DNA of 64,000 bases from Oscillospiraceae bacterium (lineage in GTDB: Bacteria > Bacillota > Clostridia > Oscillospirales > Ruminococcaceae): assembly GCA_022791945.1 (NCBI GenBank), contig JAAVZY010000021.1:3295-67294 (forward strand), written 5' to 3'. The translations under genes were made by a program, and so were the position numbers. Position 1 is the first letter of the stretch. Every line of letters starts with the position of its first letter. Below, one piece after another: positions 2,977 to 23,475 of this stretch. The notes beneath the pieces are model-generated. The model made no database searches and was not told the DNA's origin. It saw only the letters and a list, made by a program, of their open reading frames with translations.

Positions 2977-5064
2977 ATGCCTGCCAACGCACTGGAAACG
3001 CTGGCGCTGCTGCTGGGAGAGGACTTTTCCGACCTCCGCCCCTTGGGCGAGGACGGCGGGCTCAGCCGCCTGTTCTCTGCCCATAAGCGCAGTCTTGATC
3101 TGGACGTTGTGATCAAGCGGATGCGGATGGATCCAAACCGTCCGGCGGACGTCCAGCGGGAAGCGCGCGTGATGACCAGCCTCCGCCACCAGTACCTCCC
3201 CAGGATCTTTGACTTCAAAACCGACGGGGATGGGTACTGCTACACCATCATGGAACGGATTCCCGGCTGCACCCTCCGGCAGTATCTGCGCCAGAAGGGC
3301 GCGCTTCCTCAGAAGCAGGCCCTGCTCTGGATGAAGCAGCTGGCCCAGGCGGCGGCTTATATGCACAGCCAGCAGCCGCCCATTATTCACAGCGACATCA
3401 AGCCTGAAAATATCATGATTACGCCTCAGGGCGATATCTGCCTGATTGACTTTAACGCCTCCCTGGAGCTTCGGGACGACGGCGCCGAAGCTGTGGGGGC
3501 CACCATGCGCTACGCCGCCCCAGAGCAGTACAATTTCCCCCTGGAGCGGTTCGGAGATCCGCAGGCTCTTTTCGGGGAGCGCCGGGCGCTTTACGATATG
3601 GCCCTCCAGGCCCAGCCCTACGGAAAGGTGACGGCACGCACCGATCTCTACGCCATCGGCGCCTGTGCCTATTTTATGCTCACCGGATATGATCCGGCCT
3701 GCTGGAATCAGGAGCGGATCCCTCTGGAGCGGTACGACATCCAGCTGGGGGATCCCCTGCGGCTGGTGATTGAACGGTGCATGGAGCTGGAGCCGTCCCG
3801 CCGGTTTTCCGACGCGAAGGAGCTTCTGCGGGCGTTGGGCGGGCTGGCCCGGATGGACGGGCGCTACCGGGCCTGGCGGATCCGCTGTCAGGCCGCGGCC
3901 CTGGCGGTGGGCTCGGCTTTCATTCTGTCAGTCTTTGTAGCCCTGTGGGGCTGGCTCCTGCTCCGGCAGGAGGGCGGCGAGGCATACAACAGCCTCATCC
4001 TTCAGGCCCAGGAAGCGGAGCCGGATTACCTCCAGGCCCAGGAGCTGCTGATGGAGGCCATCGCCTTGGATCGGGAGCGGCCCGAGGCCTATGCCAATCT
4101 GGGGGCGCTTCTCTACCGGATGGGGGATTACCGTCAGGCGGTGGAGCTGCTTGCCCAGGTCAGGCCGGATCAGACCGGCTCCCTGGCCCAGGGGGAGGCG
4201 GCCCAGGTACAGGGGCAGATTCAGTATGTGCTGGGCTCCTGCTATTATCAGCTGGAGGAGTACGACGAGGCGCTGATGTGCTATCAGCTGGCGGTCTCCT
4301 TCTGTCCGGAGGATCCGGCCTGCCGGCGGGAGCTGGCGGTCTGCGCCGCCCGGACCGGGAACGACGCTTTGGCGGATCAGGCATTGTCCGCCCTGGCGGG
4401 CATGAACCGGCCGGAGGAGGATGCAGGGGACATCGAGCTGGTGATGGGGGAAATCGCCTCCGCCCGCGGGGAGTATGAGGAAGCGCTCACGTTCCTGTCT
4501 ACAGTGGTGCGGGCGTCGGACAATCACAGCTTTATCGGGCGGGCGGCCCTTCAGGCCGCCCAGTGCTGCCGCCAGCTGGGAAGCGGCTGGCTGGAGCAGG
4601 AGATAGAGGTGCTGGAGACAGCGGTCCAGCGGCTGGAGATTTCAGAAAACGGGCTTCAGTCCCAGCTTTTGGCGGAGGCGCTGATCCGCCGGGCGTCTGC
4701 CCAGCCGGAGCGGCGGGCGGAGTCTTACGAGCAGGCGCTTGGCCTTTTGCAGGATCTGATGAACCGGGGCCAGCCCACCCTGACCGTGCGGCAGAATACC
4801 GCCCTGGTGCTGGAGTACCTGGACCGGTTCGATGAGGCCGAGGAGCTCCTTCTCCGGCTTCGGGAGGATTTTCCCATGGATTACCGGCCCTCCATGCGGC
4901 TGGCGCTGCTCTGCTTTGACCGGGAGGGTGAGAAGCCTGCGGGCCAGCGGGACTACAGCCTTGCCCTGGAGTACAGCCGGGAGGCTGAGGAGCTCTGTCC
5001 TCCGGGCGTGGCCGACGGCGATATACTCCGCCTTCGTGAGCTCTCCGGCCAGTTCGGCCCATAA
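2977..5064 (+). CDS. Membrane Ser/Thr protein kinase with C-terminal TPR domain
   Basis: Hanks motifs VVIKRM (VAIK Lys), HSDIKPEN (catalytic loop), DFN (DFG variant) and YAAPEQ (APE). One TM segment (AAALAVGSAFILSVFVALWGWLLL) follows, then ~350 aa of TPR-like helical repeats. Confidence 0.9.
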   Translation: MPANALETLALLLGEDFSDLRPLGEDGGLSRLFSAHKRSLDLDVVIKRMRMDPNRPADVQREARVMTSLRHQYLPRIFDFKTDGDGYCYTIMERIPGCTLRQYLRQKGALPQKQALLWMKQLAQAAAYMHSQQPPIIHSDIKPENIMITPQGDICLIDFNASLELRDDGAEAVGATMRYAAPEQYNFPLERFGDPQALFGERRALYDMALQAQPYGKVTARTDLYAIGACAYFMLTGYDPACWNQERIPLERYDIQLGDPLRLVIERCMELEPSRRFSDAKELLRALGGLARMDGRYRAWRIRCQAAALAVGSAFILSVFVALWGWLLLRQEGGEAYNSLILQAQEAEPDYLQAQELLMEAIALDRERPEAYANLGALLYRMGDYRQAVELLAQVRPDQTGSLAQGEAAQVQGQIQYVLGSCYYQLEEYDEALMCYQLAVSFCPEDPACRRELAVCAARTGNDALADQALSALAGMNRPEEDAGDIELVMGEIASARGEYEEALTFLSTVVRASDNHSFIGRAALQAAQCCRQLGSGWLEQEIEVLETAVQRLEISENGLQSQLLAEALIRRASAQPERRAESYEQALGLLQDLMNRGQPTLTVRQNTALVLEYLDRFDEAEELLLRLREDFPMDYRPSMRLALLCFDREGEKPAGQRDYSLALEYSREAEELCPPGVADGDILRLRELSGQFGP

Positions 5065-5695
5065 GAGCCTGTCGAAGGGCAAGGCCGCGAGACTCTGTCT
5101 CGCGCTCTGCGATGCGCCGCTGGCGGCGCATCGGGGATCTAAATCCCCTTGGACCCCGTAATTTTTAAGGGCTTTTGAAGGGCGGAAGGGGTTGGGGGTC
5201 AAGTCTGTAGAGACTTCCGGCTTTCTGCCACGCAGAGAGTCTGATTCCCGCAGTACGCTTTTTTCGTAAAGAAAAAAGCTCCCTCCTGCGTGCGAGGTAC
5301 TTCCTGCACCGCACAAACCCCTTGCCCCCCTTGTTAATGGGGGGAGGGCCAGAAGCGAAGCGGATGGCAGGGGGATTCCGTGCGTGGCACAGCGTCGCTC
5401 CTTGCAGAAAGCATGAGCGCAGCAGAACACGCTCGAAACCTTCTGCGTCGTAGTCTCTGCGTCGCACGTGGGGATGAATTTTTTCTTTACGAAAAAATGG
5501 GTAGGCGGGCGATCGGCCACGCAGGGAGTACCAGTGAGGTAGGGGGCGGGCGCAAGCGCCCGTCCACACCCCCACCCCCAAAAGATGGGAATCCAAGGGG
5601 GGCCTGGCCCCCTTGGCGAGAGCTCGAGAGCAGAGCTCTCGAGGTCTTCCCCTGATACTCAGAGCCTGTTGGGGGATTCTGCGTGGCCGAAGGGG
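5065..5695. repeat. Mosaic multi-hairpin repeat, full copy
   Basis: agagcctgtc-gaagggcaaggccgcgagactctgtctcgcg at the left. ccaaggggggcctggcccccttgg, ctcgagagcagagctctcgag and aacaggctct-type modules at the right. The internal core is identical in order to the other copies. Confidence 0.9.
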
Positions 5696-5905
5696 CGGAG
5701 CGCTTTTGAGTTGCGTAATGTTTGAGTTGGAGGGTGAAGCTGATGAGCTTAGGCGCCATTCTGCTTTGGTGCGGGCTGGGAGGGGCGGCGCTTTCTCTTG
5801 TTGCGGGAGCGGTCTGCTGGCTTCTCCTGCGGCGGAAGGGGCGGGAGCTTCTTCATGCCATCGAACGGGAATATAAATAGAAGTGATTCATTCGGAAAGC
5901 GAGGA

Positions 5906-6598: not shown

Positions 6599-7210
6599 AT
6601 GAAACGAATCATTGGGTGGATTTGGCTGGGGATGACGGTTCTGCTGGCCGTGTATTCAGCCGTATCCTGGTATCTTCTCCGGGGCGCGGGAGCCTATCGG
6701 CTGGGAACCCGGCTGGGCGGCTTTTTGGCAGTGAGCTGGCAGATAACCGCCCTGGCCGCGTTGGCGTTTCTGATACCCGGACTGCTCCGATTGGTATGGG
6801 TGATCCGCCGGAAGGGCGCGCCGGCCGCTCCCAAAAAGGAAAAAGCGGCCCGGAAACCCCGCTCCGGGAAGAAGGACCCTCCGCTTCCTCCCACGGAGAA
6901 GCTGTCACCTGCTTCTCCTCAGGACGAAACGGTCCTGCTGGACGAGGAAAAGCTCCCGCCTGCCCCTCCCCAGGACGAGACGGTCCTGCTGGGCGAGGAA
7001 AAGCTCCCGCCTGCCCCTCCCCAGGACAAAACAGTCCTGCTGGACGAAGAGAAGCTCCCGCCTGCTTCTCCCCAGGATGAAGCCATCCCGGCAGAAGAAG
7101 CGTCTGCCGCCGAAAAGCCTCCCGGCTGTCCCAGCTGCGGCGCCGAGGGGAAGGCCGGACAGAAATTCTGCACCAAATGCGGCAAGCCGATGGGAGGTGG
7201 AGAGAGATGA
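6599..7210 (+). CDS. Membrane protein with 17-aa tandem repeats and C-terminal zinc ribbon
   Basis: Two N-terminal hydrophobic helices, a basic linker, 3.5 copies of EKLPPAPPQDETVLLDE and a terminal CPSCG..CTKCG ribbon. Confidence 0.7.
   Translation: MKRIIGWIWLGMTVLLAVYSAVSWYLLRGAGAYRLGTRLGGFLAVSWQITALAALAFLIPGLLRLVWVIRRKGAPAAPKKEKAARKPRSGKKDPPLPPTEKLSPASPQDETVLLDEEKLPPAPPQDETVLLGEEKLPPAPPQDKTVLLDEEKLPPASPQDEAIPAEEASAAEKPPGCPSCGAEGKAGQKFCTKCGKPMGGGER
6896..7085 (+). repeat. Intragenic 51-bp tandem repeat (about 3.5 units)
   Basis: Units start at 6896, 6947, 6998 and 7049 (gaRaagctSYcRcctgcYYctccYcaggacRaRacRgtcctgctggRcgaR). Confidence 0.9.
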
Positions 7211-9903
7211 TTTGGGCGATTCTGCTCCTGTCGCTGGGACTGCTGCTGGCGGTTCTTCCCGTAGTGCTTCTGCGAAAGCGGCTGGGACTGGCCTGGCTCT
7301 CTTCTCTGGCAGCGGGCGGTTTGCTGGTGGCTGCCTGCGGCGGCTGGTTCACCTGGGGCCAGATCCGCCAGAGCCAGGAGCGCCGGGAGATTGTCTACAT
7401 GAGTCTCCAGTATTTGAAGCAGGGCCGGGTGGACGAGGCGGCCTTTTATTTGAAGAAAACCGATTCGGCGGAAACCTTTGCCTCTGCCGGAGCCCGCTCC
7501 CTGCTGGAGCTGCTCCGGGGCAATGAGATCACCGCCCGGCTGAATCTGGACTCTGCCGAGGCTCTGGCCCGTTCCGCCCAGGAACGGGAGCTGCTTCCCA
7601 TACTCAAGGGCGTGGACGTATGGGAGCCGGCCCAGCTTCAAACAGCGGTCGGGCAGCTGGAAAGCGCACTGGGCCTCTCTCAGAAGCGGCGGGAGGCTCT
7701 GGATTTTCATGTCCGGCTGGAGGCCGGCGGTCAGAGCTGGGATCAGGAGCAGGCCCGGTCCGCGGGCCTGGGCGTGAACGAGCTGGAGCGGCTGACCGTC
7801 AGCTCGCAGCTGGGCTTTGGCTCCTATGAAGCGGCGGTCTCCACTGCGGTGGGACTAGCGGATCGGAGCCCCACCGGAGACAACCGCCTCCTTTTGGCGG
7901 AGGCGGTGGCGGAGTGCGCCTACCGGGACATCTCCCTGCCGGACGTCTTGTTCGATTCCAGCGGAAGCCCCTCTGCCGCCAAGGAGCGGGCGCGGCTTGA
8001 CAGGCGCCGGGAAAAGGCGGAACGGGATTTGGCGGCTCTGGAGCTCTCCATGAACGGGATCACCGATGCGGCGGAGCTGGACCGGCTCAACGCCCGGCGG
8101 CTGGAGCTGACCCAGGAGATTCTGGGGCTTCGGCAGCAGTCGGAGAAGATCTATGTCTACCGGGCGCTGAACTCCATTGCGGATCTGCGTTCCTTGGAAG
8201 CCCAGCTGACCAGGGCCCGGCTCTATTTTGCCCTGCAGGAGTATGAGCAGGCGGTGGACACCCTGCTGGGGGCCGCGCGTTCCTTCCAGGGGCGCACCAC
8301 CCCGGACCGCTCCCTGGCCAACGCGCTGCGGATCGTGGAGCAGGCCTACTCCGGCGAGGGGGAATTTTACGACAGCCAGGAGTTTTCCGACTCCATGACC
8401 CAGCTGCTTTCCGCACCCTTTTCGGATCTGCTGCATGTCAGCCAGAGCAGCCTGACCAAGGATTTTGTTCAGCGGATCTTAAGCGATCAGAAAACCTATG
8501 GCCGGAGCCTTTCCGTCTCCGGCCTGGACGCCAGCCAGTATCCCAAAATCAAGGTGACCCTCTCGGGGCGGGAGCCGGTTTTAAGGGAGATAGTCGATCA
8601 GGCGCACATCGTCTCCCGGGACACCCGGAAGGACATCTCCTATACCGCCCAGCTCCAGTCCGGGAACCGATCGGATGTCTGCGTGCTGCTGGATCGCAGC
8701 GGCAGCATGGGCGGCGAACCCATGCTGAACCTGAAAGAGGCCCTGCGGGATTTTGTACAGGGGATCGGGGAGGAAACCTCCCTTTCCCTGGTAGCCTTTG
8801 ACAGCCGGGCGGAGCGGCTGACCGAGCTCACCCAGGATCAGGCGCTGCTTCTTTCCACAGTGGACAGCCTTTCCGCTGGTGGCGGGACGGATATCACCGC
8901 AGGGATCCAGGCCGGGCTGGAGGTGCTGGAGGGCTCTGCCGGCAGCCGGTGCCTTCTGCTGATGACCGACGGTCAGAGCAGCGTGGATACCTCCATAATG
9001 GACGAGGCGGCCCGGCGGGGAATCATCATACATACCATTGGATTCGGCAGCGTCAACGACAGCCTTCTTCAGGAGATCGCCGACCGCACCGGCGGGCAGT
9101 ATGTCCGGGCGGATTCCTCCTCCGAGCTGCGAAATGTCTACGCCAGCCTCCAGCAGCTCATTGGGCATTTTGTCACCCTGGAGTATACGGTTACCGATAC
9201 GGAGACGGCAAACCAGCGGTATTTCTTCCTGGATACCGGAGCCTTCAGCGTCCGCAGGGAGTATGCCCTGGCGGAGGAGGGGGCGGAGCCCTTCCGGGTG
9301 CAGTTCTGCAATCCTGCTCTGACGGACGGGGAGACGTTCGCCCGGCTGGCGGCCCAGGGGAATCCTCTGCGGCTGACGCTCTATGGCGAGGGGCTTGATC
9401 GGGTGGAGCGGGTCACCCTGAACGGCCGGGAAGGCCAGCTTCTCCAGCGGGAGGCGGATTCCCTCCAGGTGGATGTGGTTCCCGATGGGCGGCAGGGCTG
9501 GCAGACCCTCACCCTGATCACCGGCGATGGGGAGGAGTATGCCTTCGACCGGCTCCTTCTCTCCGGAGAGATTCAGAGCTGGCGGGATCTCCGGATAGGG
9601 AATCTGCTGATTCCCTCCGCCAGGGGAATTCTTCCCGGGGACGGCACCCTGGTGGTGGGAGGAAGCGTGGGACTTCAAAACAGCGGGGATGGTTCCCTGG
9701 CTCTCTGGATGAACGGCACCCTGATCCTGCCGGAGCCCTCCGGCGGGGACGGGGATTTGGGCGAGCAGGCCAGCCTGCCCGGCTGGGGGCTGGTGCGGAT
9801 CACGCAGGAGGACGGGGCGTATGATCCCCTGGGGCCTCAGAAGGTGGCCGGCGGCGGATTCACCCTGGACTGCCGGCGGGGACAGGGCTTCCTGATCCGG
9901 TGA
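7207..9903 (+). CDS. Membrane-anchored von Willebrand factor A (vWA) domain protein
   Basis: The ATG at 7207 overlaps the upstream stop (ATGA) and follows ggaggtggagag. Two N-terminal TM helices. MIDAS motif DRSGSMGG with downstream GGTDI and LLMTDGQS. C-terminal beta-rich region. Confidence 0.8.
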   Translation: MIWAILLLSLGLLLAVLPVVLLRKRLGLAWLSSLAAGGLLVAACGGWFTWGQIRQSQERREIVYMSLQYLKQGRVDEAAFYLKKTDSAETFASAGARSLLELLRGNEITARLNLDSAEALARSAQERELLPILKGVDVWEPAQLQTAVGQLESALGLSQKRREALDFHVRLEAGGQSWDQEQARSAGLGVNELERLTVSSQLGFGSYEAAVSTAVGLADRSPTGDNRLLLAEAVAECAYRDISLPDVLFDSSGSPSAAKERARLDRRREKAERDLAALELSMNGITDAAELDRLNARRLELTQEILGLRQQSEKIYVYRALNSIADLRSLEAQLTRARLYFALQEYEQAVDTLLGAARSFQGRTTPDRSLANALRIVEQAYSGEGEFYDSQEFSDSMTQLLSAPFSDLLHVSQSSLTKDFVQRILSDQKTYGRSLSVSGLDASQYPKIKVTLSGREPVLREIVDQAHIVSRDTRKDISYTAQLQSGNRSDVCVLLDRSGSMGGEPMLNLKEALRDFVQGIGEETSLSLVAFDSRAERLTELTQDQALLLSTVDSLSAGGGTDITAGIQAGLEVLEGSAGSRCLLLMTDGQSSVDTSIMDEAARRGIIIHTIGFGSVNDSLLQEIADRTGGQYVRADSSSELRNVYASLQQLIGHFVTLEYTVTDTETANQRYFFLDTGAFSVRREYALAEEGAEPFRVQFCNPALTDGETFARLAAQGNPLRLTLYGEGLDRVERVTLNGREGQLLQREADSLQVDVVPDGRQGWQTLTLITGDGEEYAFDRLLLSGEIQSWRDLRIGNLLIPSARGILPGDGTLVVGGSVGLQNSGDGSLALWMNGTLILPEPSGGDGDLGEQASLPGWGLVRITQEDGAYDPLGPQKVAGGGFTLDCRRGQGFLIR

Positions 9904-9926: not shown

Positions 9927-11270
9927 ATGAAGGCGCTGAAGATAAAGAAGGGGCCGATCCTGCTGCCGCTACTTCTGCTGGCGGCGGCGCTGGGGGCCTA
10001 CACCCTGCTGAACTACCAGGGGGTCACCGCGGCGGACAGCCTTTCCCTGGGGGAGCAGCAGCTGAACAATCTGGACTACAGCGGGGCGGTGGCCTCCTTT
10101 ACCCAGGCGATTTCCCTGGATCCCAGCAGCCGGGACGCCCGGATTGGGCTGGCCAAGGCCTACGCCGGCGCGGAGGAATACGACTTTGCCCAGCAGGTGC
10201 TGGATGATCTGGTGGGCGCGGAGAGGCCGGATGAGGACGCGGCCCTGGTGATGGTGGACATTCTCCGGAAGAACGGGCGGCTCTCCCAGGCGGCCCGGAT
10301 GGCGCAGCTCCTGGTGGACGCCACAGACGGGGACGAATACTACGCCCTGCGGGATGAGCTGCTCTCCGGCGTGTATGACGTCCCCTGTCATGGGGCCGCA
10401 GGGAACGGGTATTCTCTCCTTCTGCGGAACGGGCAGGTGTTGGGCAGAGGAAGCAACGACATGGGACAGCTGGGGCTGGATCCGGCGGCGACAGCTTTCA
10501 GCGATTCGTATAGTTCCTGCGGGTTTAATGGTACGGCGGTGAAGGTGGCCTGTGCCGGCCGGACCTCGCTGGTGGTGGATCAGTCCGGCGGGCTCTGGGC
10601 CGCTGGTGAGGATCGCTGGGGGCAGATGGGAGAGGGGTACGGACTGACCTCCTCCCGGAGCGGCTGGCGGCAGCTGGCCTGTCCCGGCCCTGTGGCGGAT
10701 GTGGCAGGCACCACCGGCAGGCTGCTGGTGCTCCTGCGGGACGGTTCCCTCTGGACAGCGGGCGCGGGAGGGGATCAGACCTTCCGGCGGCTGTCCTTTC
10801 CGGTGGTATCCGCCATTGCGGCCAGTCAGGATCGGGCTGCGGTGCTGACCGTGGGCGGGCAGCTGCATGTGAGCCGCGCGGATGCGCCGGAGCAGTGGAC
10901 TCTGGCGGCTTCCAACGTGGTCAGCTTCACCCTTTCGGGCAGCGGGCTCTGCTGGGTGACCGGGGAGAACGGGCTCTGCCTGGAACAGGGACAGCTCAAT
11001 GTCCCTGCCAGCTGGTATAACGGGGATATTTATCCGGACTTCACCCTGGAGCAGGCGGCGGTCCTGGAGAACGGGTCTGCCCTGCTGCTTGGCACCGGCG
11101 ACCGGCTTTACCGGCTTCCGGGCGACGGGACAGTGCAGGAGCTCCAGACCGACAGCCCGGTCCGAACCCTCCGGCCCATGGACGGACTGCTCCTGCTGGA
11201 GCACGCAGACGGCTCCGCCTCCTGGTGGAACCCCGCTTCCGCCTCCCTGGAGCCAACAGACACGCTTTGA
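9927..11270 (+). CDS. Signal-anchored TPR + RCC1-like beta-propeller repeat protein
   Basis: ATG at 9927 after aggaaaggag. N-terminal hydrophobic anchor, TPR-like helices, then RCC1-type signatures GRGSNDMGQLG and AAGEDRWGQMGEG. Confidence 0.65.
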   Translation: MKALKIKKGPILLPLLLLAAALGAYTLLNYQGVTAADSLSLGEQQLNNLDYSGAVASFTQAISLDPSSRDARIGLAKAYAGAEEYDFAQQVLDDLVGAERPDEDAALVMVDILRKNGRLSQAARMAQLLVDATDGDEYYALRDELLSGVYDVPCHGAAGNGYSLLLRNGQVLGRGSNDMGQLGLDPAATAFSDSYSSCGFNGTAVKVACAGRTSLVVDQSGGLWAAGEDRWGQMGEGYGLTSSRSGWRQLACPGPVADVAGTTGRLLVLLRDGSLWTAGAGGDQTFRRLSFPVVSAIAASQDRAAVLTVGGQLHVSRADAPEQWTLAASNVVSFTLSGSGLCWVTGENGLCLEQGQLNVPASWYNGDIYPDFTLEQAAVLENGSALLLGTGDRLYRLPGDGTVQELQTDSPVRTLRPMDGLLLLEHADGSASWWNPASASLEPTDTL

Positions 11271-11272
11271 GG

Positions 11273-11790
11273 CGGGGAAGGCCGCGAGAGCTCTGCTCTC
11301 GCGCTCTCGCCAAGGGGATTAAATCCCCTTGGAACCCGTAATTTTTAAGGGCTTTTTTAGGGGCGGAAAAAGGGGTGGTTGAGTCTGTACAGACTTCCGA
11401 ACGTCTGTCACGCAGACAGTCTGATTCCCGCAGTACGCTTTTTTCGTAAAGAAAAAAGCTCCCCCCTGCGTGCGGGATACTCCCTGTGCCGCACGGGGAT
11501 TTCTGCTCAAACTCTGTTAGACGCAGAAACCTCTTGCCCCCCTTGTATTCCGCTTCTGACGAAGCGGCGGGGGGAGGGCCAGGAGCGAAGCGGATGGCAG
11601 GGGGATTCCGTGCGTGGCACAGTGTTCCCCCTCCGCAGAGAGCATGAGCGTAACAGAACCCGCTCGAAACTTTCTGCGTCGCACCTTCTGCCCCCCAAAC
11701 CCCCCAAAAGACGGGAATCCAAGGGGAGCCAGCTCCCCTTGGCAGAGCGCGAGACAGAGTCTCGCGGCCTTGCCCTTCGACCACGCAGAG
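11273..11790. repeat. Mosaic multi-hairpin repeat, full copy
   Basis: ggggaaggccgcgagagctctgctctcgcg..ccaaggggattaaatccccttgg at the left. ccaaggggagccagctccccttgg..cgcgagacagagtctcgcggccttgcccttc-gaccacgcagag at the right. Confidence 0.9.
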
Positions 11791-12067: not shown

Positions 12068-15000
12068 ATGAACCGTGAACAGCAGTATATTCTTACCATC
12101 CAGAACGGGGACGTCTTCAAAGAGGTGGACGTCTCCGGACAGACGCCCTCCCTGAAAATCGGCACCCTCCAGGACTGCGGGGTGCGGCTGAAAGGGGAGC
12201 TGTTTCCTGTTCCGATCTCCCTGGCGCTTCGGCTGGGGGAGGATGGCTGGCGGCTCTCCTGCGGGCAGGGGCTCTGCCTGAGCTCCTCCTCTGTCCAGGA
12301 CTGCGGCGAAGCCCTCATCGGCCACGGGGACATTCTCCGTCTCTGCCGGCAGGGAGAGCGTCAGGAGCTTCTGACCCTTTCCTTCTCCTACAACTTTACC
12401 GCCGGGTTGGGGGAGTTTGACACCATCCTGGACATTCGCGGCCAGTCCCGGATCCTCATCGGCAATCACCCCGCCGCCCAGATCCAGCTGGCAAGCGGCT
12501 ACATTGGGGAGGAATATCTGATCCTCTCCGCCGCGCAGAACGGCCGGTATGCCCTGGACGTTTCCAACGCTGCAGACGCCACCCTCAACGGCGTCCGCCA
12601 GCTCTCCTCCTGCACGGTGGGAGAGTTTGACTTCATTGGCATCGCGGATTACAGCTTCTACCTAAAAAACCAGCTTTTGTACACCCAGGGCCGAAAGGAT
12701 CTCACCCTCCGGGGCATCCCCTCCCAGCCTCTCCGGGAGGAGACAGCGGCCTTCTGCTACCCCAAGCTCAACCGGAGCCCCCGGATGGAGTATGTGTTTG
12801 ACCGGGAGCCCATCGAGATCCTCAACCCGCCCGGAAAGCCCTCAAAGCCCCGGGACAATCTGGTGCTTCAGCTCTCTCCCGCGCTGGCCATGCTGGCGGT
12901 CACCTTCCTGACCCGGAGCGGGCTCATCGGCGGATCCCGGCCCAGCAATCTGAGCTTCCTGCTCTTCAGCGTGGCGACGATGACGGTTGGCATCTTTACC
13001 ACGGTTCTGAGCTTTGTGCACAACCGGCGGCAGTACAAAAAGGATCTGGCCGCCTGGTATGGGGACTATGAGGCCTACATTGCTGCCAAACGCCTGGAAA
13101 TTCAGGAGGAGCAGCAGCGGGAGCTGGCCGCCCTGGAGGATCTCTCCCCCTCCGGGGAGCAGCTCAGGGACTTTGTGAAAACCTTTTCCAGCCGCCTCTT
13201 TGAGCGTTCTCCCGGGGACGGGGATTTCCTTCACGTCCGGGCAGGGCTGGGCGCGGTTCCCGCCCTGCGGCCGGTCACCAACAGCTGCGAGGAGCATATC
13301 AAGGAGGAAAACGATCTGGCCCATATCCCGGCGGAGCTCTGCAAGGAATACGCCCTGATCCAGCCTGCGCCGGTGATCCTTCACCTTCGGGAGTCGGGCT
13401 GTACCGGCGTGGTGGGCTCCCCGGAGGAGCAGTACGAATTCTTTAAGACCCTCCTGCTGGACGTCTGTGTACAGCAGGACTATGAGGAGCTCCAGGTTGT
13501 GGTATTCATCCCCAGGGGCCAGGAGGAGAAGTACCGGTGGATCCGCTGGTTCCCCCACATCCGGGAATCCGGCGGCGGGGCCAGGGGGATCGTCTGCGAC
13601 GACGAGAGCCGGGACAGCCTGCTGGAATACCTCTACGCCCTGGCAGGGGCCCGGAGTGCCGCGGCGGAGCAGGAGGGCGGCAGCGCGCCCCAGCCCAGCC
13701 CCCATGTATTGGTGCTGGTGCTGGAGGAGTACGGCCTCCGCACGCACCCCCTGTTCAAGTTCGCGGAGCAATGCGGCAGTCTGGGACTGAGCTTTGTCTT
13801 CTTCCAGGAGTACGGGGAGAACCTGCCCCGGTACTGTCAGGAGATCGCGGAGCTCCAGCCCGGCAGCGGGGTCCTTCTCCGGAAGGCGGATAAGGCGTTC
13901 CGCTCCCCCTTCCGGCGGGAAGGGGTGGACGACGCCAGCATCCGCTTTGCGGCGGAGCGTCTGGCCCCGGTCTACAGCGAGAAGATCGCCCTTGCCTCTC
14001 GGCTCACCGCCAAGATCACCCTGTTTGAGCTTTTGAATATCATTGAGCCCAAAAACCTGGATCTCCGCCAGCGGTGGGCCCGATCCAACGTGCAGAAATC
14101 CCTGTCCGCCCCTCTGGGAGTGGACGCCAAGGGCAGCGTGATAGCCCTGGATCTCCATGAGAAGGCCCATGGCCCCCATGGCCTGGTGGCCGGCACTACC
14201 GGCTCCGGCAAGAGCGAAATCATGCAGTCCTACATCCTCTCCGCGGCGGTGAGCTTCCATCCCTATGAGGTGGGGTTTGTGATCATCGACTTTAAGGGCG
14301 GCGGCATGGCCAACCAGTTCGAGCGGCTGCCCCATCTGATCGGCAAGATCACCGATATTGACAGCCAGGAGATCAACCGGTCCCTGCTCTCCATCCGGGC
14401 GGAGCTGGAGAAGCGGAAGCGGCTCTTCGCGGAGCATGAGGTCAACCATATTGACCAGTACATAGCCAAATACCGGGAGGGAGCGGCCCAGGTTCCCCTG
14501 CCCCATCTGATTCTGATTGTGGACGAATTCGCCGAGCTCAAGGCGGAGCAGCCGGAGTTTATGAAGGAGCTCATCAGCACCGCCCGGGTGGGCCGGAGCC
14601 TGGGCATCCACCTGATTCTGGCCACGCAGAAGCCCTCCGGCCAGGTGAACGAGCAAATCTGGAGCAACTCCCGGTTCAAGCTCTGCCTGAAGGTGGCTAC
14701 TCGGGAGGACAGCAACGAGGTGCTCCGCTCCCCGCTGGCGGCGGAGATTCTGGAGCCGGGCCGGGCGTATCTCCAGGTGGGCAACAACGAGGTATTCACC
14801 CTGTTCCAGTCCGCCTACAGCGGCGCCTCTGCCTCCAGCGATAAAAACGGCAGCATGCGGGAGTTTTCTATCCAGGAGGTGGATTTCGCGGGCAGGCGGA
14901 CAGAGGTCTACCAGCGAAGGGCCCCCCGCTCTGACGACGGCAGCCGGATTACGCAGCTGAAAGCCCTGGTGAGCTATATCAACGGCTACTGCCAGCAGGA

Positions 15001-16642
15001 GGGGATCCCCTCTCTGCCGGATATCTGTCTGCCGCCCCTGCCGGAGCTGCTGCCCTATCCCAGCCAGCCCCACAGCGTCCGGGCGCTTCCCGCAGGCGTT
15101 TATGACGCGCCCTCCAGCCAGCTCCAGCCGGAGCTTACCCTAGATCTACTGGAGGCCAATGTGATGATCATCGGCTCCGCCCAGACCGGCAAGACCACCT
15201 TGCTCCAGAGCCTCCTGCGGGGGCTTGCCGAAGCTGCCTCCCCCAAAGAGGTATCGGTCTATATTCTGGACTTTGCCTCCAAGATCATGAAGGTGTTCCA
15301 GGAGCTGAACCATGTGGGCGGGGTCCTTACCGATGGAGACGACGAGAAGCTGAAAAACTTCTTCAAGATGATCCTGTCCGGCATGGCCGAGCGGAAGGAG
15401 GTTTTCTCCCAGCTGGGCGTCAGCTCCTACGAGGCCTATCTGGAGCTTGCCCCGGAGAACCCCCTGCCGCACATTGTCATCATGGTGGATAATCTGGCCA
15501 TGTTCCGGGAGCTGTTCCCGGACTACGAGGAGGCCCTGCTGAACATCTGCCGGGAGGGCCTGGCTTTGGGCATCACCGTGATTGCCACCGCCAAGCAGAC
15601 CAGCGGCCTGAGCTACCGGTATCTGAACAGCTTTGCCCGGCGGCTGGCCTTCAACTGCACGGAAAACAGCGAGTACAGCAGCCTCTTTGACCGGTGTCAG
15701 CTTCGGCCCCGCAGCTTCCAGGGCCGGGGACTGGCGGCGGTGGATAAGGTCGTGTATGAATATCAGGCCTTCCAGCCCTTCCCCGGAGAAAAGGAGAGCC
15801 AGCGGACCGAGGCGATCCGGGCCTTCATTGCTTCTATGGAAGGGATCTGGGGCAGTCTCCGGGCCCGGCCGGTGCCCGGCATTCCCCAGCTGCTGACTGG
15901 GGATTACTGGGATGAGAACGGCCTCCGGTTTGACCCGTATGTAGTGCCAATCGGCCTGACCTACGGGGAGATTGAGCCCCTGACGGTGGATCTGGCTCAC
16001 ATCGGCGGCCTGGGCGTCTATGGACGGAAGGGCTTCGGCAAGAGCAACCTGCTCCGGATCCTGCTGGGATATCTCCAGCGGCACGTGTTCGACTTCCCCT
16101 CCCAGGTCTACCTGATCGACAGCTATGATCATCAGCTGGCGGAATTCCGCACCTTCGGAATCGTGGAGCAGCTCACCATTGACTGCGGGGATTTTGAGGA
16201 TATCCTTCAGACCTTCGCCGACGAGGCGGAGCGGCGGATGGATATCCTCCGGGAGGGAGCGGATCTGGCGGAGGAGCCCCTGCTGCTCTGCGTCCTCCAG
16301 AATCAGGGGATCTACGGGCCGGGGGCGGTGCCTAAGCCGGTCTGCGAGCGTCTTCGGCAGCTGCTCAAGGACGCGCCCCAGCTGAAGCTCTGCTTCCTGT
16401 TCTCCGATGTGGAGAACAACGGGGAGTACGCCCCGCCGGAGCTGCTGAAGGTAGTCCGGGAGCTTGGGCAGCAGCTTCTGCTGGATGATCTGCCCGGGGT
16501 CAAGTTCCTGGGGAGCAATAAGTTCACCCCGGCGGAGCTGAAGCAGAACCGGAAGCCTCTCTCCCTGGGAGACGGTTACTGGTACGACGCCAGAGACGGG
16601 GTGCAGAAGCTCCGGCTGGTCAAATGCGAGGAAGCAATCTGA
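12068..16642 (+). CDS. essC: Type VII secretion FtsK/SpoIIIE-family ATPase EssC/YukB
   Basis: 1524 aa. N-terminal tandem FHA-like region, two TM helices and three P-loop domains (GTTGSGKSE, GSAQTGKTT, GRKGFGKSN). Walker B IVDEFAEL. Confidence 0.95.
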   Translation: MNREQQYILTIQNGDVFKEVDVSGQTPSLKIGTLQDCGVRLKGELFPVPISLALRLGEDGWRLSCGQGLCLSSSSVQDCGEALIGHGDILRLCRQGERQELLTLSFSYNFTAGLGEFDTILDIRGQSRILIGNHPAAQIQLASGYIGEEYLILSAAQNGRYALDVSNAADATLNGVRQLSSCTVGEFDFIGIADYSFYLKNQLLYTQGRKDLTLRGIPSQPLREETAAFCYPKLNRSPRMEYVFDREPIEILNPPGKPSKPRDNLVLQLSPALAMLAVTFLTRSGLIGGSRPSNLSFLLFSVATMTVGIFTTVLSFVHNRRQYKKDLAAWYGDYEAYIAAKRLEIQEEQQRELAALEDLSPSGEQLRDFVKTFSSRLFERSPGDGDFLHVRAGLGAVPALRPVTNSCEEHIKEENDLAHIPAELCKEYALIQPAPVILHLRESGCTGVVGSPEEQYEFFKTLLLDVCVQQDYEELQVVVFIPRGQEEKYRWIRWFPHIRESGGGARGIVCDDESRDSLLEYLYALAGARSAAAEQEGGSAPQPSPHVLVLVLEEYGLRTHPLFKFAEQCGSLGLSFVFFQEYGENLPRYCQEIAELQPGSGVLLRKADKAFRSPFRREGVDDASIRFAAERLAPVYSEKIALASRLTAKITLFELLNIIEPKNLDLRQRWARSNVQKSLSAPLGVDAKGSVIALDLHEKAHGPHGLVAGTTGSGKSEIMQSYILSAAVSFHPYEVGFVIIDFKGGGMANQFERLPHLIGKITDIDSQEINRSLLSIRAELEKRKRLFAEHEVNHIDQYIAKYREGAAQVPLPHLILIVDEFAELKAEQPEFMKELISTARVGRSLGIHLILATQKPSGQVNEQIWSNSRFKLCLKVATREDSNEVLRSPLAAEILEPGRAYLQVGNNEVFTLFQSAYSGASASSDKNGSMREFSIQEVDFAGRRTEVYQRRAPRSDDGSRITQLKALVSYINGYCQQEGIPSLPDICLPPLPELLPYPSQPHSVRALPAGVYDAPSSQLQPELTLDLLEANVMIIGSAQTGKTTLLQSLLRGLAEAASPKEVSVYILDFASKIMKVFQELNHVGGVLTDGDDEKLKNFFKMILSGMAERKEVFSQLGVSSYEAYLELAPENPLPHIVIMVDNLAMFRELFPDYEEALLNICREGLALGITVIATAKQTSGLSYRYLNSFARRLAFNCTENSEYSSLFDRCQLRPRSFQGRGLAAVDKVVYEYQAFQPFPGEKESQRTEAIRAFIASMEGIWGSLRARPVPGIPQLLTGDYWDENGLRFDPYVVPIGLTYGEIEPLTVDLAHIGGLGVYGRKGFGKSNLLRILLGYLQRHVFDFPSQVYLIDSYDHQLAEFRTFGIVEQLTIDCGDFEDILQTFADEAERRMDILREGADLAEEPLLLCVLQNQGIYGPGAVPKPVCERLRQLLKDAPQLKLCFLFSDVENNGEYAPPELLKVVRELGQQLLLDDLPGVKFLGSNKFTPAELKQNRKPLSLGDGYWYDARDGVQKLRLVKCEEAI

Positions 16643-16666: not shown

Positions 16667-17071
16667 ATGGCTATGGCGGAAACAGCCGCCCGTCCGAACG
16701 CGCAGACAGTCCTGAACCAAACCAAGACCGCTATGGGAGCCGTCGTCGGGTCAGCCATGAGCGGCGCCCTAAACGGCGGCGAGACGGTCGCCCATCTGGA
16801 CACCAAGAGCTTTGAGGATGCCATAACGGCCTTCGGTAGCTACATCACCAGCTTTGAGACAATCGTTAAGGAGGTACGGGCGCTTCAGAAGAAGCTGCTG
16901 GACAACTGGAAGGGGGAGGGCAGCAAGGCCTACGACAAGGATTGCTGTCAGGTGTCTCTCAATCTGCAGGATCTTTCCGATATTATGTATGAGCTCCGGG
17001 ACGGCCTGATCAATGCCCAGGTGGAGTACATCCGAACGGATGCTGCTGTGTCCAAGGGCTTTGACTCATAG
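16667..17071 (+). CDS. WXG100-like small helical protein with N-terminal extension
   Basis: W-K-G motif (LLDNWKGEGSKAY) at the centre of a predicted helix-turn-helix. The start may be the ATG at 16673, 7 nt after ggaaaggggga. Confidence 0.6.
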   Translation: MAMAETAARPNAQTVLNQTKTAMGAVVGSAMSGALNGGETVAHLDTKSFEDAITAFGSYITSFETIVKEVRALQKKLLDNWKGEGSKAYDKDCCQVSLNLQDLSDIMYELRDGLINAQVEYIRTDAAVSKGFDS

Positions 17072-17082: not shown

Positions 17083-17523
17083 ATGTCTTTGGATTCGCTG
17101 AACCGGGAGCTCGACCGTTGGAATGATCGGGCGGACACTCTGTCCGATCAGGTGAAGAAGCTGAAAAACCGCAAAAGCGCGGTGGAGAAAATCCGGCGGG
17201 CGCTTTCCAGCACAGCCCGCAGCGGGAGCGGAAGCGCCAACAGCGCCCTCCAGGGCTGCCGGAGCGGTCTGGGGATGGGCGTCCGGTTTTCCGGTAAAGA
17301 GGCCCTGCTGGACGGGATTTTTGATCTGGAAAAAAAGGAAAAGTCCCTGGAACAGGACGGGGATCTCTCCCAGGCGGATGAGGCCCTGGGACAGGAGCTG
17401 CGAAGGATCGAACAAGATCTGAAGAGCGCGGAGAGCTCCCTGAAGGAAGCCAAGAGCGCCGTCAGCTCTACCAAAAGCGCCATTCGCAAGGAGAAGCTGA
17501 ACAACATCGCAAAGGGGAGGTGA
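17083..17523 (+). CDS. Small coiled-coil protein (T7SS-associated, function unknown)
   Basis: 146 aa with heptad-rich, K/E/L-rich sequence. Tightly packed between the WXG-like gene and the LXG-like gene. Confidence 0.55.
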   Translation: MSLDSLNRELDRWNDRADTLSDQVKKLKNRKSAVEKIRRALSSTARSGSGSANSALQGCRSGLGMGVRFSGKEALLDGIFDLEKKEKSLEQDGDLSQADEALGQELRRIEQDLKSAESSLKEAKSAVSSTKSAIRKEKLNNIAKGR

Positions 17524-19328: not shown

Positions 19329-19330
19329 CT

Positions 19331-20666: not shown

Positions 20667-20969
20667 ATGGCTGTAAACTTACATCTGGATCAGGATGCTT
20701 TTCAGGCAGCCTGCTCCGGACTGGAGGAAAAATGCCGAGATCTGGAGGCGCTCAGCGGCCAGATTCAGAGCTCCTTTGAGCAACTCCGTCAGGATTGGGA
20801 CTCCCAGGCAGGAAAGCTCTTCTTTGAGCGTTTCGAGAACGATCTCATCAAAAATCTGGATCAGTTCACAGTGGTTATGGAGCACATGAACCAGAACCTT
20901 TCTTCTGCCTCCCAGCAGTATGAGGAGGTATTTGAGGCCGCTGAAGCTGTCGCCAACGGACAGTTCTAA
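20667..20969 (+). CDS. WXG100-family protein with degenerate W-x-S motif
   Basis: 100 aa, two predicted helices, central QDWDSQAG in place of WxG. ATG at 20667 after gagaggatgagg. Confidence 0.6.
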   Translation: MAVNLHLDQDAFQAACSGLEEKCRDLEALSGQIQSSFEQLRQDWDSQAGKLFFERFENDLIKNLDQFTVVMEHMNQNLSSASQQYEEVFEAAEAVANGQF

Positions 20970-21447
20970 AGCCTGTTCAGAGTCGAAGGGCAAGGCCGCG
21001 AGACGCTGTCTCGCGCTCTTCCAAAGGGACGCGTCCCTTTGGAATCCCATCTTTTTGAAGGGCTTTTAAGGGCGGAAAAAGGGGTGGGGTTAAGTCTGTA
21101 CAGACTTCCGGCTTTCTGCCACGCAGAGAGTCTGATTCCCGCAGGACGCTTTTTTCGTAAAGAAAAAAGCTCCCTCCTGCGTGCGGGTAGTTCCTGTGCC
21201 GCATTGGGTTCCTGCGCAGAACACGCTTGAAACTTTCTGCGTCGCAGCTTCTGCCCCACTCGTAGAGCTGAATTTTTTCTTTACGAAAAAATGGGTAGGC
21301 GGGCGATCGTCACTGCTAAGAGTATCAGCGAGGCAGGGGGACGAGCGCAAGCGCCCGTCCCCACCCCCCACCCCCAAAAGACGGGAATCCAAGGGGACGC
21401 GTCCCCTTGGCGAGTGCTCGAGAGCAGCGCTCTCGAGGTCTTGACCT
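20969..21447. repeat. Mosaic multi-hairpin repeat, full copy
   Basis: aagcctgttcagagtc-gaagggcaaggccgcgagacgctgtctcgcg at the left. ccaaggggacgcgtccccttgg..ctcgagagcagcgctctcgaggtcttgacc at the right. Confidence 0.9.
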
Positions 21448-21585
21448 TAGGAACAATGATGAAGTCTGCCGTAAGGCTGCTTTGGCGGCTTCCGCAGCCT
21501 GCTGCGGGCCTGAAGGGAATCACCGTTTCCTTCAGGTACGGAGACAATAGAAAAGCCCATTGAAAATTGAAAGGAGAAAAACGAC

Positions 21586-21885: not shown

Positions 21886-21960
21886 GTGAGAAGGCTGCGG
21901 CGGCCTGCCTTTGGCGGGCCGCCGCGGCTGCGCTTTCATCAATTTCAAGGAGGTTTCCCC

Positions 21961-23475
21961 ATGTCTGTCAAACGACTGCTGGCTCTATTCAATGTGCTGA
22001 TCCTCATTGTCCTTCTGTCCGGAAGGAGCCTGGGAGCGGACAGCGTCTCCCTGGTCCAGGCCTATGCCTGGGAGGACACCCTGGACGTCTTTACACAGGG
22101 CGCTTTCAGCCCCGACAGCCTTTCCTGCCGGATCTCCAATCAGGAGGCGGAGATTGTCCGGAGCGGTTCCCTGGCGGATATGGGGGTAACCGTTCAGACC
22201 CAGCTGCTGGTGGATGTGTCCACCTCCATGCCCGCGCCCCTGCGGGATAAGGTACTGGCTGTGATGGACGCCCTGATTGCCTCCATCCCTCCGGGAGAGC
22301 AGTACCAGCTTGCGGCCATCGGGGAGCAGGTTTCCGTGCTCCAGCCCTTCACCTCTGATCGGTATGATTTGGCTGTGGGAGCATCCAAGATCGCTTTCAA
22401 CGGCCAGGAAAGCCGGATCTACGACGCTGTTTACAACACCCTTCCCCAGATCGCGCCTTTGGAAGAGGGAAAGCCCTGCTTCTACCGCACGGTCATTTTG
22501 ACGGACGGAGTGGATCTGACCGATACCGGCGTGACGGTAGAGGAGCTCTACCTGAAGCTCCAGTCCAGCACCTATCCCATTGACGTTGTGGATGTCGGCG
22601 AAAAATCCGCGCCGGATCGGGAGCTGTCCGCCCTTGCGCGGATCAGCGGCGGACGGTACTTCTCCCTGAACGGGACGACGGATCCGGCGGCTCTGGCCGC
22701 CTCCCTGGGCGTGGGAGACGTATACTGGACCCGGCTGAAAGCCCCGGAGGCGCTCCTGGACGGTTCCACCCGGCAGGTCAACCTGTCCGACGGCAGTCTC
22801 TCCCTGGAGTTTGACTGCAAATTCCCCGTGTTCGGCACGCCGGAGACATCTTCGGCGCCCCCGGAGCCGCCCCCTGTATCTTCTGCGGTTCCGGTGATCC
22901 TGCCGGAGCCTGCGCCGGAGCCGGAGAAGAGCCTCCTTCCGGTGCTGCTGATTGCCGGCGCTGCGGTCATCGCCGTCAGTGCCGCAGTGCTGACGGTGCT
23001 CCTGCTCCGGAAGCGGGGCAAACAGGCGAAGCCTGGTGCCGGCGGATTGATTCCGCCCGCGCAGGGAGGGCAGGGAACAGAGCTGCTGTCAGCGGATGGG
23101 CGCACCCAGCTGATTTCCTCCACGGCCCCTTCTGTCCGGCTCCGGAGCACCGCAGATGCTTCTCAGGTGTGGGAGCTGGTTTTGGGCGCGCAGGGCCAGG
23201 AGGTGCGGATCGGCCGAAGCCCCGACTGCCGGATCTGCCTGCCGGAGGCCAGCGTCTCCCGGGAGCAGTGCAGGCTTTACTATGACGGGGGAATCTATGC
23301 GGAGAACATCAGCGGCTCCAACGTCACCCAGCTCAACGGAGAGCCGCTCAAGGCTCCTGCCCTCCTGGCAGAGGGGGATCTGCTGAAATGCGGCCGGATC
23401 TCTCTGATTGTAGAGGCGGTCACCATCTCCGGTGGAGGAAACCTGAACAAGAAAACCGCTTTCATCAATATATAG
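21961..23475 (+). CDS. Signal peptide - vWA - TM - FHA domain protein
   Basis: ATG at 21961 after caaggagg. N-terminal signal-like helix. MIDAS DVSTSM with TDGVD. TM LLPVLLIAGAAVIAVSAAVLTVLLL. C-terminal FHA signature RIGRSPDCRICL..SVSREQCRL..NGEPL. Confidence 0.8.
   Translation: MSVKRLLALFNVLILIVLLSGRSLGADSVSLVQAYAWEDTLDVFTQGAFSPDSLSCRISNQEAEIVRSGSLADMGVTVQTQLLVDVSTSMPAPLRDKVLAVMDALIASIPPGEQYQLAAIGEQVSVLQPFTSDRYDLAVGASKIAFNGQESRIYDAVYNTLPQIAPLEEGKPCFYRTVILTDGVDLTDTGVTVEELYLKLQSSTYPIDVVDVGEKSAPDRELSALARISGGRYFSLNGTTDPAALAASLGVGDVYWTRLKAPEALLDGSTRQVNLSDGSLSLEFDCKFPVFGTPETSSAPPEPPPVSSAVPVILPEPAPEPEKSLLPVLLIAGAAVIAVSAAVLTVLLLRKRGKQAKPGAGGLIPPAQGGQGTELLSADGRTQLISSTAPSVRLRSTADASQVWELVLGAQGQEVRIGRSPDCRICLPEASVSREQCRLYYDGGIYAENISGSNVTQLNGEPLKAPALLAEGDLLKCGRISLIVEAVTISGGGNLNKKTAFINI

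Follow-up and report, generated by a model that had tools for sequence, protein, structure and literature searches.

A Non-Canonical Type VII Secretion Locus of an Oscillospiraceae Bacterium with Kinase, vWA-FHA and Candidate Substrate Genes

Gene Content of the Locus

The window analysed here is a stretch of 64,000 nucleotides (64 kb) from an Oscillospiraceae bacterium, and the subject is the gene block at positions 2977-23475 of it, in which the ATPase gene essC of a type VII secretion system (T7SS) lies among genes for kinase, FHA, vWA, TPR and zinc-ribbon proteins. The block was scored by listing and translating the open reading frames (ORFs), and then by Pfam and NCBIfam searches on every ORF. 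On balance, it is probably one functional locus of a non-canonical T7SS, which would be gated by phosphorylation and have the protein named p602 as its cargo.

According to the ORF listing and translation and to the gene calls of related contigs, the block holds 16 genes, all on the + strand (Table 1); the gene calls on the identical metagenome contigs L081-L084 concur with the window ORFs, and the GenBank proteins MCI8405770-80 correspond to the same genes. The initial annotation had the strand right and counted 15 genes, the sixteenth being a 45-aa gene with a single transmembrane (TM) helix. It had also described many of the genes as overlapping or nearly abutting. The start of the 898-aa vWA gene does overlap the stop of the upstream TM zinc-ribbon gene, but the genes do not abut at three gaps of about 0.5-0.7 kb (5065-5742, 11271-11807 and 20970-21585), each of which is filled by one copy of a repeat resembling a miniature inverted-repeat transposable element (MITE).

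Table 1. Features of the block, with the evidence for each.
Feature	Coordinates	Strand	Evidence
Ser/Thr kinase-TM-TPR protein, 695 aa	2977..5064	+	Pfam Pkinase 8e-30 and TPR families
MITE-like repeat copy	5065..5660		
45-aa single-TM protein after the kinase	5743..5880	+	gene call L081/L082; tblastn 8e-10
Soluble coiled-coil double-zinc-ribbon protein, 182 aa	5906..6454	+	Pfam DZR 6e-16
Two-TM protein with Pro-rich linker and C-terminal zinc ribbon	6599..7210	+	Pfam; TM prediction
898-aa two-TM vWA protein	7207..9903	+	Pfam VWA 4e-22
Signal-anchored TPR and RCC1-like beta-propeller protein, 447 aa	9927..11270	+	Pfam; topology
MITE-like repeat copy	11263..11790		
YukD/EsaB, ubiquitin-like	11808..12059	+	Pfam YukD (PF08817) 1.5e-8, 35.7 bits against a cutoff of 27
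EssC ATPase	12068..16642	+	TIGR03928, 1080 bits against a cutoff of 778
WXG100-like small helical protein, Lap-like partner 1	16673..17071	+	Pfam WXG100 9e-8
146-aa helical protein, Lap-like partner 2	17083..17523	+	PF16888 (YwqH-like) E=0.022, below threshold
p602, 599 aa	17529..19328	+	no Pfam, NCBIfam or PDB match
Cytoplasmic all-TPR protein, 434 aa	19331..20635	+	Pfam TPR families
Divergent WXG100-like protein	20667..20969	+	Pfam WXG100 2.5e-5, below cutoff; TIGR03930 6e-8
MITE-like repeat copy	20976..21455		
Canonical EsxA-like WXG100 protein, 99 aa	21586..21885	+	Pfam 1e-14; TIGR03930 58.9 bits against a cutoff of 44.85
Signal peptide-vWA-TM-FHA protein, 504 aa	21961..23475	+	Pfam FHA 7e-13 and VWA_2

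Secretion Core and Absent T7SSb Partners

YukD, EssC and three WXG100-like genes are recognisable by Pfam and NCBIfam, as had been claimed from the sequence at first reading. EssC is built from a degenerate tandem FHA-like N-terminus, two TM helices and three P-loop domains, whose Walker A motifs lie at residues 709, 1036 and 1319. That is to say, the general features of a T7SS are present: an EssC with three P-loops and two TM helices, a WXG100 gene in the locus, and YukD. The best PDB match of EssC is Bacillus subtilis YukB (9qks), which covers residues 230-991 only, and four further PDB chains match its C-terminal ATPase region. EssC had been described as having three P-loops and an FHA-type N-terminus; the P-loops are confirmed, but the FHA character is weak, since the N-terminal ~230 residues give only a faint FHA-like match (Yop-YscD_cpl, E=0.011) and the residues that bind phosphothreonine are absent, with G-T and G-N at the two GR sites and the serine of SxxH gone. 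By comparison, the EssC of the related locus L087 (15826-20487, - strand), which is of another type (8e-144 to the window EssC), shows the canonical FHA pattern (GR...SRTHA...STNGT).

The search for the other T7SSb components covered the 64-kb window and the gene calls of related loci. No ORF of the window has a Pfam or NCBIfam match to EssA, EssB/YukC (PF10140, TIGR03926) or EsaA/YueB, in agreement with the initial annotation, which had noted their absence among the listed ORFs, and the YukC, EssA and EsaA families are not among the matches listed for the gene calls at L081/L082 and L093-L095.

Conservation among Related EssC Clades

A genome scan with EssC gave 80 loci, which were split by window-protein profiles and by Pfam on representative neighbours, with flanks of 10 kb examined around essC. 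Group II consists of 11 loci, namely the window, L001-L006, L077 and L093-L095. They come from Lachnospiraceae, Oscillospiraceae, Gracilibacteraceae and Thermoclostridium, including Acetatifactor muris and Thermoclostridium caenicola, and their EssC proteins are about 60-66% identical to that of the window (tblastn values for L001-L006 and L077). The shared gene order is YukD, EssC, WXG, a helical protein of ~150 aa, p602, a ~160-aa two-TM protein (in 5 loci), the TPR protein, WXG, WXG, vWA-TM-FHA and the kinase. The kinase, p602, the TPR protein and the helical protein are present in 11/11 loci and vWA-TM-FHA in 10/11, and PP2C follows this core in 4/11. The WXG gene directly after EssC is kept in the related loci that carry the p602 cassette; it has no separate tally, as the WXG profiles cross-match each other.

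Group I consists of 71 loci, for example that of [Ruminococcus] torques ATCC 27756, whose EssC is about 40% identical to the window EssC, and it is a mix of the subtypes T7SSf and T7SSj of Garrett et al. Its typical genes encode a DUF6382-FHA protein (59/71), a ParA/TadZ-like (TsfV-like) ATPase directly upstream of yukD (66/71) and a large Ig-like protein (44/71), and a kinase is found in 36/71. The first three of these genes occur in 0/11 Group II loci. Profiles built from L065 proteins were used for the first two (TsfJ and TsfV), and tblastn gave no match to them in the window.

The kinase and vWA-TM-FHA are thus tied to this EssC clade by their occurrence in nearly all of its loci, as had been supposed. 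The 898-aa vWA, zinc-ribbon and RCC1 genes are accessory within the clade. In most relatives the kinase sits downstream of the FHA gene and not upstream of essC; in the window the kinase cassette was moved upstream of yukD, and probably in L093 as well. Moreover, the vWA-TM-FHA homologue P0157 is found on 335 contigs, with the same neighbourhood in 22 of the 23 contigs read, and the architecture is therefore common. The 602-aa gene (p602) and the 434-aa TPR gene had been passed over as incidental, which proved wrong: of all clade-specific parts of the locus, these two and the pair of small helical genes are the best conserved.

Kinase, vWA-TM-FHA Protein and Candidate Phospho-Switch

The kinase, the only protein with a kinase fold that was found, has its TM helix at residues 302-330, followed by an extracytoplasmic TPR domain, and its catalytic residues are intact (K46, HSD140IKPEN, D158FN, APE). 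Its nearest solved structures are StkP/PknB, not EssB. An EssB-like ancestry was considered for the kinase and rejected on account of these intact motifs and PDB neighbours.

The vWA-TM-FHA protein is composed of a signal peptide, an extracytoplasmic vWA domain with MIDAS, a TM helix and a cytoplasmic FHA domain. In 81 family members the MIDAS DxSxS and the FHA residues G418, R419, S433, R434 and N454 are at least 90% conserved. The canonical phosphothreonine-binding residues (GR, SR and N) are present in this FHA domain, and the His of SxxH is replaced by Gln. PP2C, which could act as the counterpart of the kinase, adjoins it in the relatives L002, L087, L093 and L094. As for the 45-aa TM protein after the kinase, it is 46% identical to a 43-aa gene product of L087; the 60-aa gene after the L002 kinase has a similar TM helix and basic tail by eye, and tblastn gave no match for it.

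A possible target of phosphorylation lies in the TM zinc-ribbon protein. Within its gene, a 51-nt tandem repeat at 6908-7081 (3.4 copies, 87% matches) encodes D-E-T-V-L-L three times in the linker, and from the charge distribution the linker and the zinc ribbon are predicted to lie in the cytoplasm. FHA domains commonly favour a hydrophobic pattern at pT+3. D-E-T-V-L-L is a candidate pT-x-x-L docking site for FHA domains. The homologues of the TM zinc-ribbon protein carry unrelated repeat units (DETVPM, TELLPE, TMPMP), and T-x-x-L/M is kept in all; that differing units share a T-x-x-L/M(P) core points to a short linear motif under selection within a linker that evolves fast. In the linkers of 7/8 homologues T-x-x-[LM] is enriched over shuffles, and in 4 of the 8 the observed count was reached by no more than 1/2000 shuffles, counts that are inflated by the tandem repetition.

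p602 and Its Partner Genes

The N-terminal ~270 residues of p602 are conserved and contain a helical hairpin, the motif WWKCGGG and an Ala/Gly-rich two-TM hairpin (residues 167-229), while its C-terminal half is hypervariable: the N-termini align in 2672/2701 pairs, the C-termini in 217/2701. There are 603 representative p602 relatives and no Pfam model of the family, and its profile gave no match against PDB sequences up to E 10. Pfam searches on 74 relatives returned a single AHH, a single NucA/NucB and two SseC matches. The features that recall LXG proteins are the two small helical genes upstream, the modelled N-terminal hairpin and the hypervariable C-terminus, with PF04740 itself absent. 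Furthermore, in Group I loci lacking the p602 cassette the same slot is occupied by a WXG gene and then LXG toxins. Most likely p602 is secreted and inserts into membranes, as a pore-former or an effector of the translocator type.

The 434-aa TPR protein gave the NCBIfam match LcrH/SycD (7.5e-17, below cutoff) and a weak T7SS_EccA1_N match. It occurs with p602 in 11/11 Group II loci; in Group I, 12 loci have p602 and 12 have the TPR protein, at least 10 of them having both (L031 and L080 end before the TPR position). From this co-occurrence and these profile matches, the TPR protein is a candidate chaperone for p602.

Between the p602 and TPR genes of five clade members there is a gene for a protein of ~160 aa with TM helices at both termini (L001:16346-16852, L094:7512-7982, with homologues in L002-L004), which was not found in the window. 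This protein may confer immunity to a membrane-active p602.

The Kinase, Zinc-Ribbon, vWA and TPR-RCC1 Cassette

The 898-aa vWA protein has 59 full-length homologues with 34-72% identity, and a metagenome scan using the vWA alignment gave 5 loci. Its AlphaFold2 model (pLDDT 85) shows two N-terminal TM helices, a TPR-like solenoid, a beta-sandwich, a vWA domain with MIDAS and C-terminal beta-sandwiches. Foldseek on this model returned only vWA proteins, with ArnAB (8s05) among the top matches (2e-8). An EsaA-like ancestry of the protein was considered as well and was rejected, since by AlphaFold2 and Foldseek the fold matches vWA proteins only.

In every locus with context the cassette has the same order: vWA-TM-FHA or DUF6382-FHA, PP2C, kinase-TPR, the ~45-aa TM protein, in some a 125-aa membrane protein (not found in the window), the double zinc ribbon, the TM zinc ribbon, the ~900-aa vWA protein and TPR-RCC1. 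The part from the kinase through the small TM protein, the zinc ribbon(s) and the ~900-aa vWA protein to TPR-RCC1 recurs in L085-L091, and in related loci the TPR-RCC1 gene always comes directly after the 898-aa-type vWA gene. The cassette has yukD-essC as its neighbour in the window, in L093 and also in L087, where the two are on opposite strands; in L093 its tail, TPR-RCC1, lies directly upstream of yukD-essC, and a vWA908 homologue is inferred on the contig. The L087 EssC belongs to another type. At least two EssC lineages are therefore served by one and the same kinase cassette, and in one of them EssC itself has an FHA competent for phosphothreonine. In L091 the cassette adjoins a cluster of five WXG genes and vWA-TM-FHA, and in L086, L089 and L090 it adjoins DUF5702, a 200-aa protein (p200) and a long DUF6382-FHA, of which the Group I loci L039, L014 and L064 have homologues upstream of essC. 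In summary, wherever the flank of a related locus is long enough, the cassette stands next to T7SS or T7SS-associated genes. According to the initial annotation, the novelty of the locus would vanish if genes 2977-11270 were unlinked to essC in related genomes; because the cassette adjoins T7SS genes in the related loci, they are linked. Elsewhere in the clade other extracytoplasmic proteins come after the kinase: a TPR-LRR protein and a 715-aa vWA protein in L094, WG-repeat proteins in L093, and plain TPR proteins in L095 and L006.

Relationship to Known Systems

Garrett, Higginson & Palmer (2024; PMC11217815) defined the subtypes T7SSc-j, which contain kinases, PP2C phosphatases, FHA and vWA (TscE) proteins, zinc-ribbon/TM proteins (TseK) and a TPR-tailed kinase (TsjD), and control by phosphorylation was proposed there. 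The general concept of kinase/FHA/vWA variants has therefore already been published, and the statement that such systems are poorly described is outdated. The gene set of the window, however, fits none of T7SSc-j. The EssC accessions WP_103238884 and WP_149679316 (cultured clade members) and WP_004848270 (R. torques) are absent from the TsxC accession lists of that paper, and the literature searches found no later subtype or description.

T7SSj and T7SSe are similar to the window in having WXG100, YukD-like and EssC proteins, a membrane Ser/Thr kinase, a separate FHA protein and a small zinc-ribbon/TM protein (TseK/TsjK), in lacking EssA, EssB and EsaA, and in the phosphorylation control proposed for them; a TsjD-type membrane kinase with a C-terminal extracytoplasmic TPR domain, as found in T7SSj, is encoded at 2977-5064. 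They differ in that the window has no large Ig-like TsxI (TsjI), DUF6382-FHA TsxJ (TsjJ) or PP2C (TsjF), that its FHA protein is a vWA-TM-FHA fusion, and that it has p602, its candidate TPR chaperone, the 898-aa vWA protein and TPR-RCC1 in addition. Moreover, TsjC of T7SSj keeps the phosphothreonine motif in its FHA domains, whereas the window EssC does not. With T7SSf and the R. torques-type loci of Group I, the window shares the nearest EssC outside the clade (~40% identity), the YukD-EssC-WXG order, a partly conserved EssC FHA motif on their side and, in 12/71 loci, the same p602/TPR cassette; the difference is that TsfJ (DUF6382 and FHA) and TsfV (TadZ-like) lie beside yukD-essC nearly always there and in 0/11 loci of the window clade, which uses vWA-TM-FHA instead. 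T7SSc is further removed: its EssC has no FHA, its vWA protein TscE is cytoplasmic and it has the EspG-like TscG, whereas the window EssC has an FHA-like N-terminus, both window vWA proteins are membrane-anchored and no EspG-like Pfam or NCBIfam match was found. T7SSb, that is, the Yuk system of B. subtilis and the Ess system of S. aureus, has in common with the window the TIGR03928 EssC, YukD/EsaB, a single EsxA-like WXG100 protein and small Lap-like genes upstream of a large substrate with a helical N-terminus. It is distinguished by EssA, EssB and EsaA, which the window lacks, by the fact that residues 1-229 of the window EssC are unrelated in sequence to YukB, and by the catalytically intact kinase that the window has in an EssB-like topology (kinase fold, TM, outside domain).

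Outside the T7SS there are two functional parallels. [quoted passage not shown] A membrane Hanks kinase with an extracytoplasmic sensor, an FHA protein and, in the relatives of the window, PP2C are found on both sides. In the T6SS the FHA protein binds phosphothreonine on a membrane component and licenses the machine, and the counterpart in the window is a proposal. The machine is a different one, the proteins are not orthologous, and vWA and FHA are fused across the membrane here, so the analogy is functional only. The archaeal ArnA (zinc ribbon and FHA) and ArnB (vWA and beta-sandwich) form a phosphorylation-dependent complex (PMC6509490; PDB 8s05) with the same toolkit of zinc ribbon, FHA, vWA with beta-sandwich, Hanks kinase and phosphatase. 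ArnAB is cytosolic and concerns archaellum expression, while the window domains are spread over membrane proteins, and the similarity of the 898-aa protein to ArnAB is limited to the vWA/beta-sandwich part, with a TM-score of ~0.4 on the target.

Proposed Mechanism and Alternative Explanations

By analogy with the T6SS pathway, secretion is most likely gated by threonine phosphorylation, and the system would export a membrane-inserting LXG-like substrate. The extracytoplasmic TPR, vWA and propeller domains would sense an envelope or cell-contact cue and turn the kinase on, which would then phosphorylate threonines, the best candidates being the T-x-x-L/M repeats in the TM zinc-ribbon protein's cytoplasmic linker. 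With its canonical FHA domain, vWA-TM-FHA would bind these phosphothreonines and nucleate or license the assembly of EssC, as PpkA/Fha/PppA do on the T6SS, and the kinase and FHA proteins would assume the membrane-scaffold role that EssB/EsaA hold in T7SSb. The degenerate FHA-like domains of EssC are probably phospho-independent docking modules, as has been proposed for T7SSb (PMC11217815), and in the relatives PP2C would reverse the signal. The cargo would be p602, with its LXG-like N-terminus and two-TM hairpin, together with the two Lap-like partners and the cytoplasmic TPR chaperone.

Several points speak against this interpretation. The steps that go beyond gene content, domains, conserved residues and synteny are inferred. 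EssA, EssB and EsaA might lie elsewhere in the genome, of which 64 kb was surveyed, and no PP2C gene was found by Pfam or tblastn anywhere in the window. With regard to the cargo, p602 has no LXG (PF04740) Pfam match, and its AlphaFold2 model, from a 17-sequence alignment, has a pLDDT of 49.8, the N-terminal hairpin alone being usable (pLDDT 70-77). Nuclease-bearing p602 members were not located among 20 proteins scanned singly or by motif search, and support for a 'polymorphic toxin' is therefore weak. As for the switch, the T-x-x-L/M counts are swollen by the tandem repeats, as stated above. The topology of the 898-aa protein is ambiguous as well, because a protein with two TM helices could have its bulk on either side of the membrane; only 2-3/11 clade loci have its gene and the zinc-ribbon and RCC1 genes within 10 kb of essC; and the L085 cassette has no visible T7SS motor gene.

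These last observations also bear on the possibility that two independent systems are merely neighbours here, the kinase, zinc-ribbon, 898-aa vWA and TPR-RCC1 cassette, perhaps with vWA-TM-FHA, being an envelope-signalling module like ArnA/ArnB or the PASTA kinases that controls, for example, Tad pili or the cell wall. In most clade relatives the cassette is not within 10 kb of essC; in L085, which begins at a contig edge, the genes after it encode a second kinase, a zinc-ribbon-vWA-YARHG protein and an amidase, and essC is not seen there; in L086, L089 and L090 it comes after the DUF5702 protein; and Foldseek ties the vWA protein to ArnAB, the regulator of another machine. Such a separation is nevertheless unlikely in view of the kinase in 11/11 and vWA-TM-FHA in 10/11 clade loci, the adjacency to essC/yukD in three independent arrangements (window, L093 and L087) and to the WXG cluster in L091, the T7SS context of the DUF5702, p200 and long DUF6382-FHA homologues in Group I, and the tight spacing with overlapping stop and start codons, which suggests co-transcription. 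The ordinary T7SSb alternative, in which essA, essB and esaA sit at other places in the genome or have diverged beyond detection, draws on the visible 64 kb, on the NCBIfam Firmicutes EssC equivalog model that names the ATPase, and on the degenerate FHA-like N-terminus, which resembles that of T7SSb EssC (PMC11217815). It is very improbable, for two libraries of profile models found none of the three on any ORF and their families are not among the matches listed for L081/L082 and L093-L095; the N-terminus cannot be aligned with YukB, whose FHA domains bind YukC; the 898-aa fold is not EsaA-like; and the locus has conserved membrane proteins of its own.

It is also conceivable that p602, its helical partners and the TPR protein are not cargo but the missing membrane apparatus, replacing EssB/EsaA and forming a channel with EssC. 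The collinear position of p602 directly after essC in 11/11 clade loci, the conserved two-TM hairpin with the invariant WWKCGGG, the fact that no other polytopic membrane protein is conserved in the locus, and the absence from the window of the putative two-TM immunity gene that follows p602 in 5 relatives would all suit an apparatus. On the other hand, the cassette is optional in the sister group (12/71 loci), where essC/yukD otherwise look complete; WXG, small helical and large helical-N-terminus genes stand in the order known from Lap-LXG substrate cassettes (PMC11217815); p602 is hypervariable in its C-terminal half; and a few AHH and NucA/NucB Pfam matches occur in the family, whose carriers and domain positions are not confirmed. 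Taken together, this makes an apparatus role decidedly unlikely, and a phosphorylation-gated locus with p602 as its cargo is the preferred reading.

A bolder extension of that reading is put forward only tentatively, and is doubtful as a whole: the clade might be an uncatalogued T7SS subtype ('T7SSk'), common in gut Oscillospiraceae/Lachnospiraceae, in which a trans-membrane vWA-FHA receptor licenses assembly on reading the T-x-x-L/M phosphothreonine repeats that the kinase has written on a zinc-ribbon membrane scaffold, and p602 is a dedicated two-TM translocon-like substrate kept soluble by a TPR chaperone like those of class II in the type III secretion system. If this were true, an ArnAB- or T6SS-TPP-like switch would be wired to a Gram-positive secretion motor, and contact-dependent delivery through a secreted pore would be implied.

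Almost all that is known of T7SS mechanisms comes from mycobacteria (T7SSa) and from Staphylococcus/Bacillus (T7SSb), and this locus bears on how the channel is built in the many variants without EssB/EsaA. Its architecture is abundant in gut Clostridia, and the cultured members Acetatifactor muris DSM 23669 and Thermoclostridium caenicola DSM 19027 make the hypotheses testable. The intact kinase motifs, the FHA GR/SR residues and the T-x-x-L/M repeats offer a phospho-switch that can be mutated, and p602 stands for a new family of predicted substrates, with 603 representative clusters and no Pfam model, which may form pores of relevance to the competition among gut commensals.

Repeats, Flanking Regions and Other Observations

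The MITE-like element is GC-rich, ~480-600 nt long and bounded by terminal inverted repeats of ~50 nt (GTCGAAGGGCAAGGCCGCGAGAC...), and at least 12 copies occur in 64 kb, about one per 5 kb. They lie at ~1-280, 1240-1740, 5065-5660, 11263-11790, 20976-21455, 23493-24024, 28605-29255, 32685-33144, 37199-37726, 47061-47614, 58290-58764 and 61859-62393. The three copies in the T7SS block cause its large gaps and the spurious ORFs 5380-5655, 11379-11795 and 21291-21563. Rfam gave no family in the window, the repeat element included.

Directly downstream of the block, three convergent genes at 24033-28567 (- strand) encode a VWA_CoxE protein (383 aa), a DUF5682 protein (759 aa, E=3e-151) and an AAA_5/MoxR-like ATPase (363 aa). 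The trio, which looks like a MoxR-vWA type system, does not belong to the T7SS block in relatives.

Among the contigs carrying a clostridial-type T7SS, L020, L021, L028 and L063 stand in bins labelled Phascolarctobacterium, Escherichia coli, Muribaculaceae or Bacteroides, and are probably mis-binned contigs of metagenome-assembled genomes. Finally, the window contains a low-GC island at 46000-56000 (0.48-0.54, compared with ~0.60 elsewhere), within which a Tn916-type integrase gene lies at 50226-51500 (- strand; Phage_integrase 2e-32 and Integrase_DNA 3e-22); the island is probably an integrated mobile element next to ligA/gatA/gatB.

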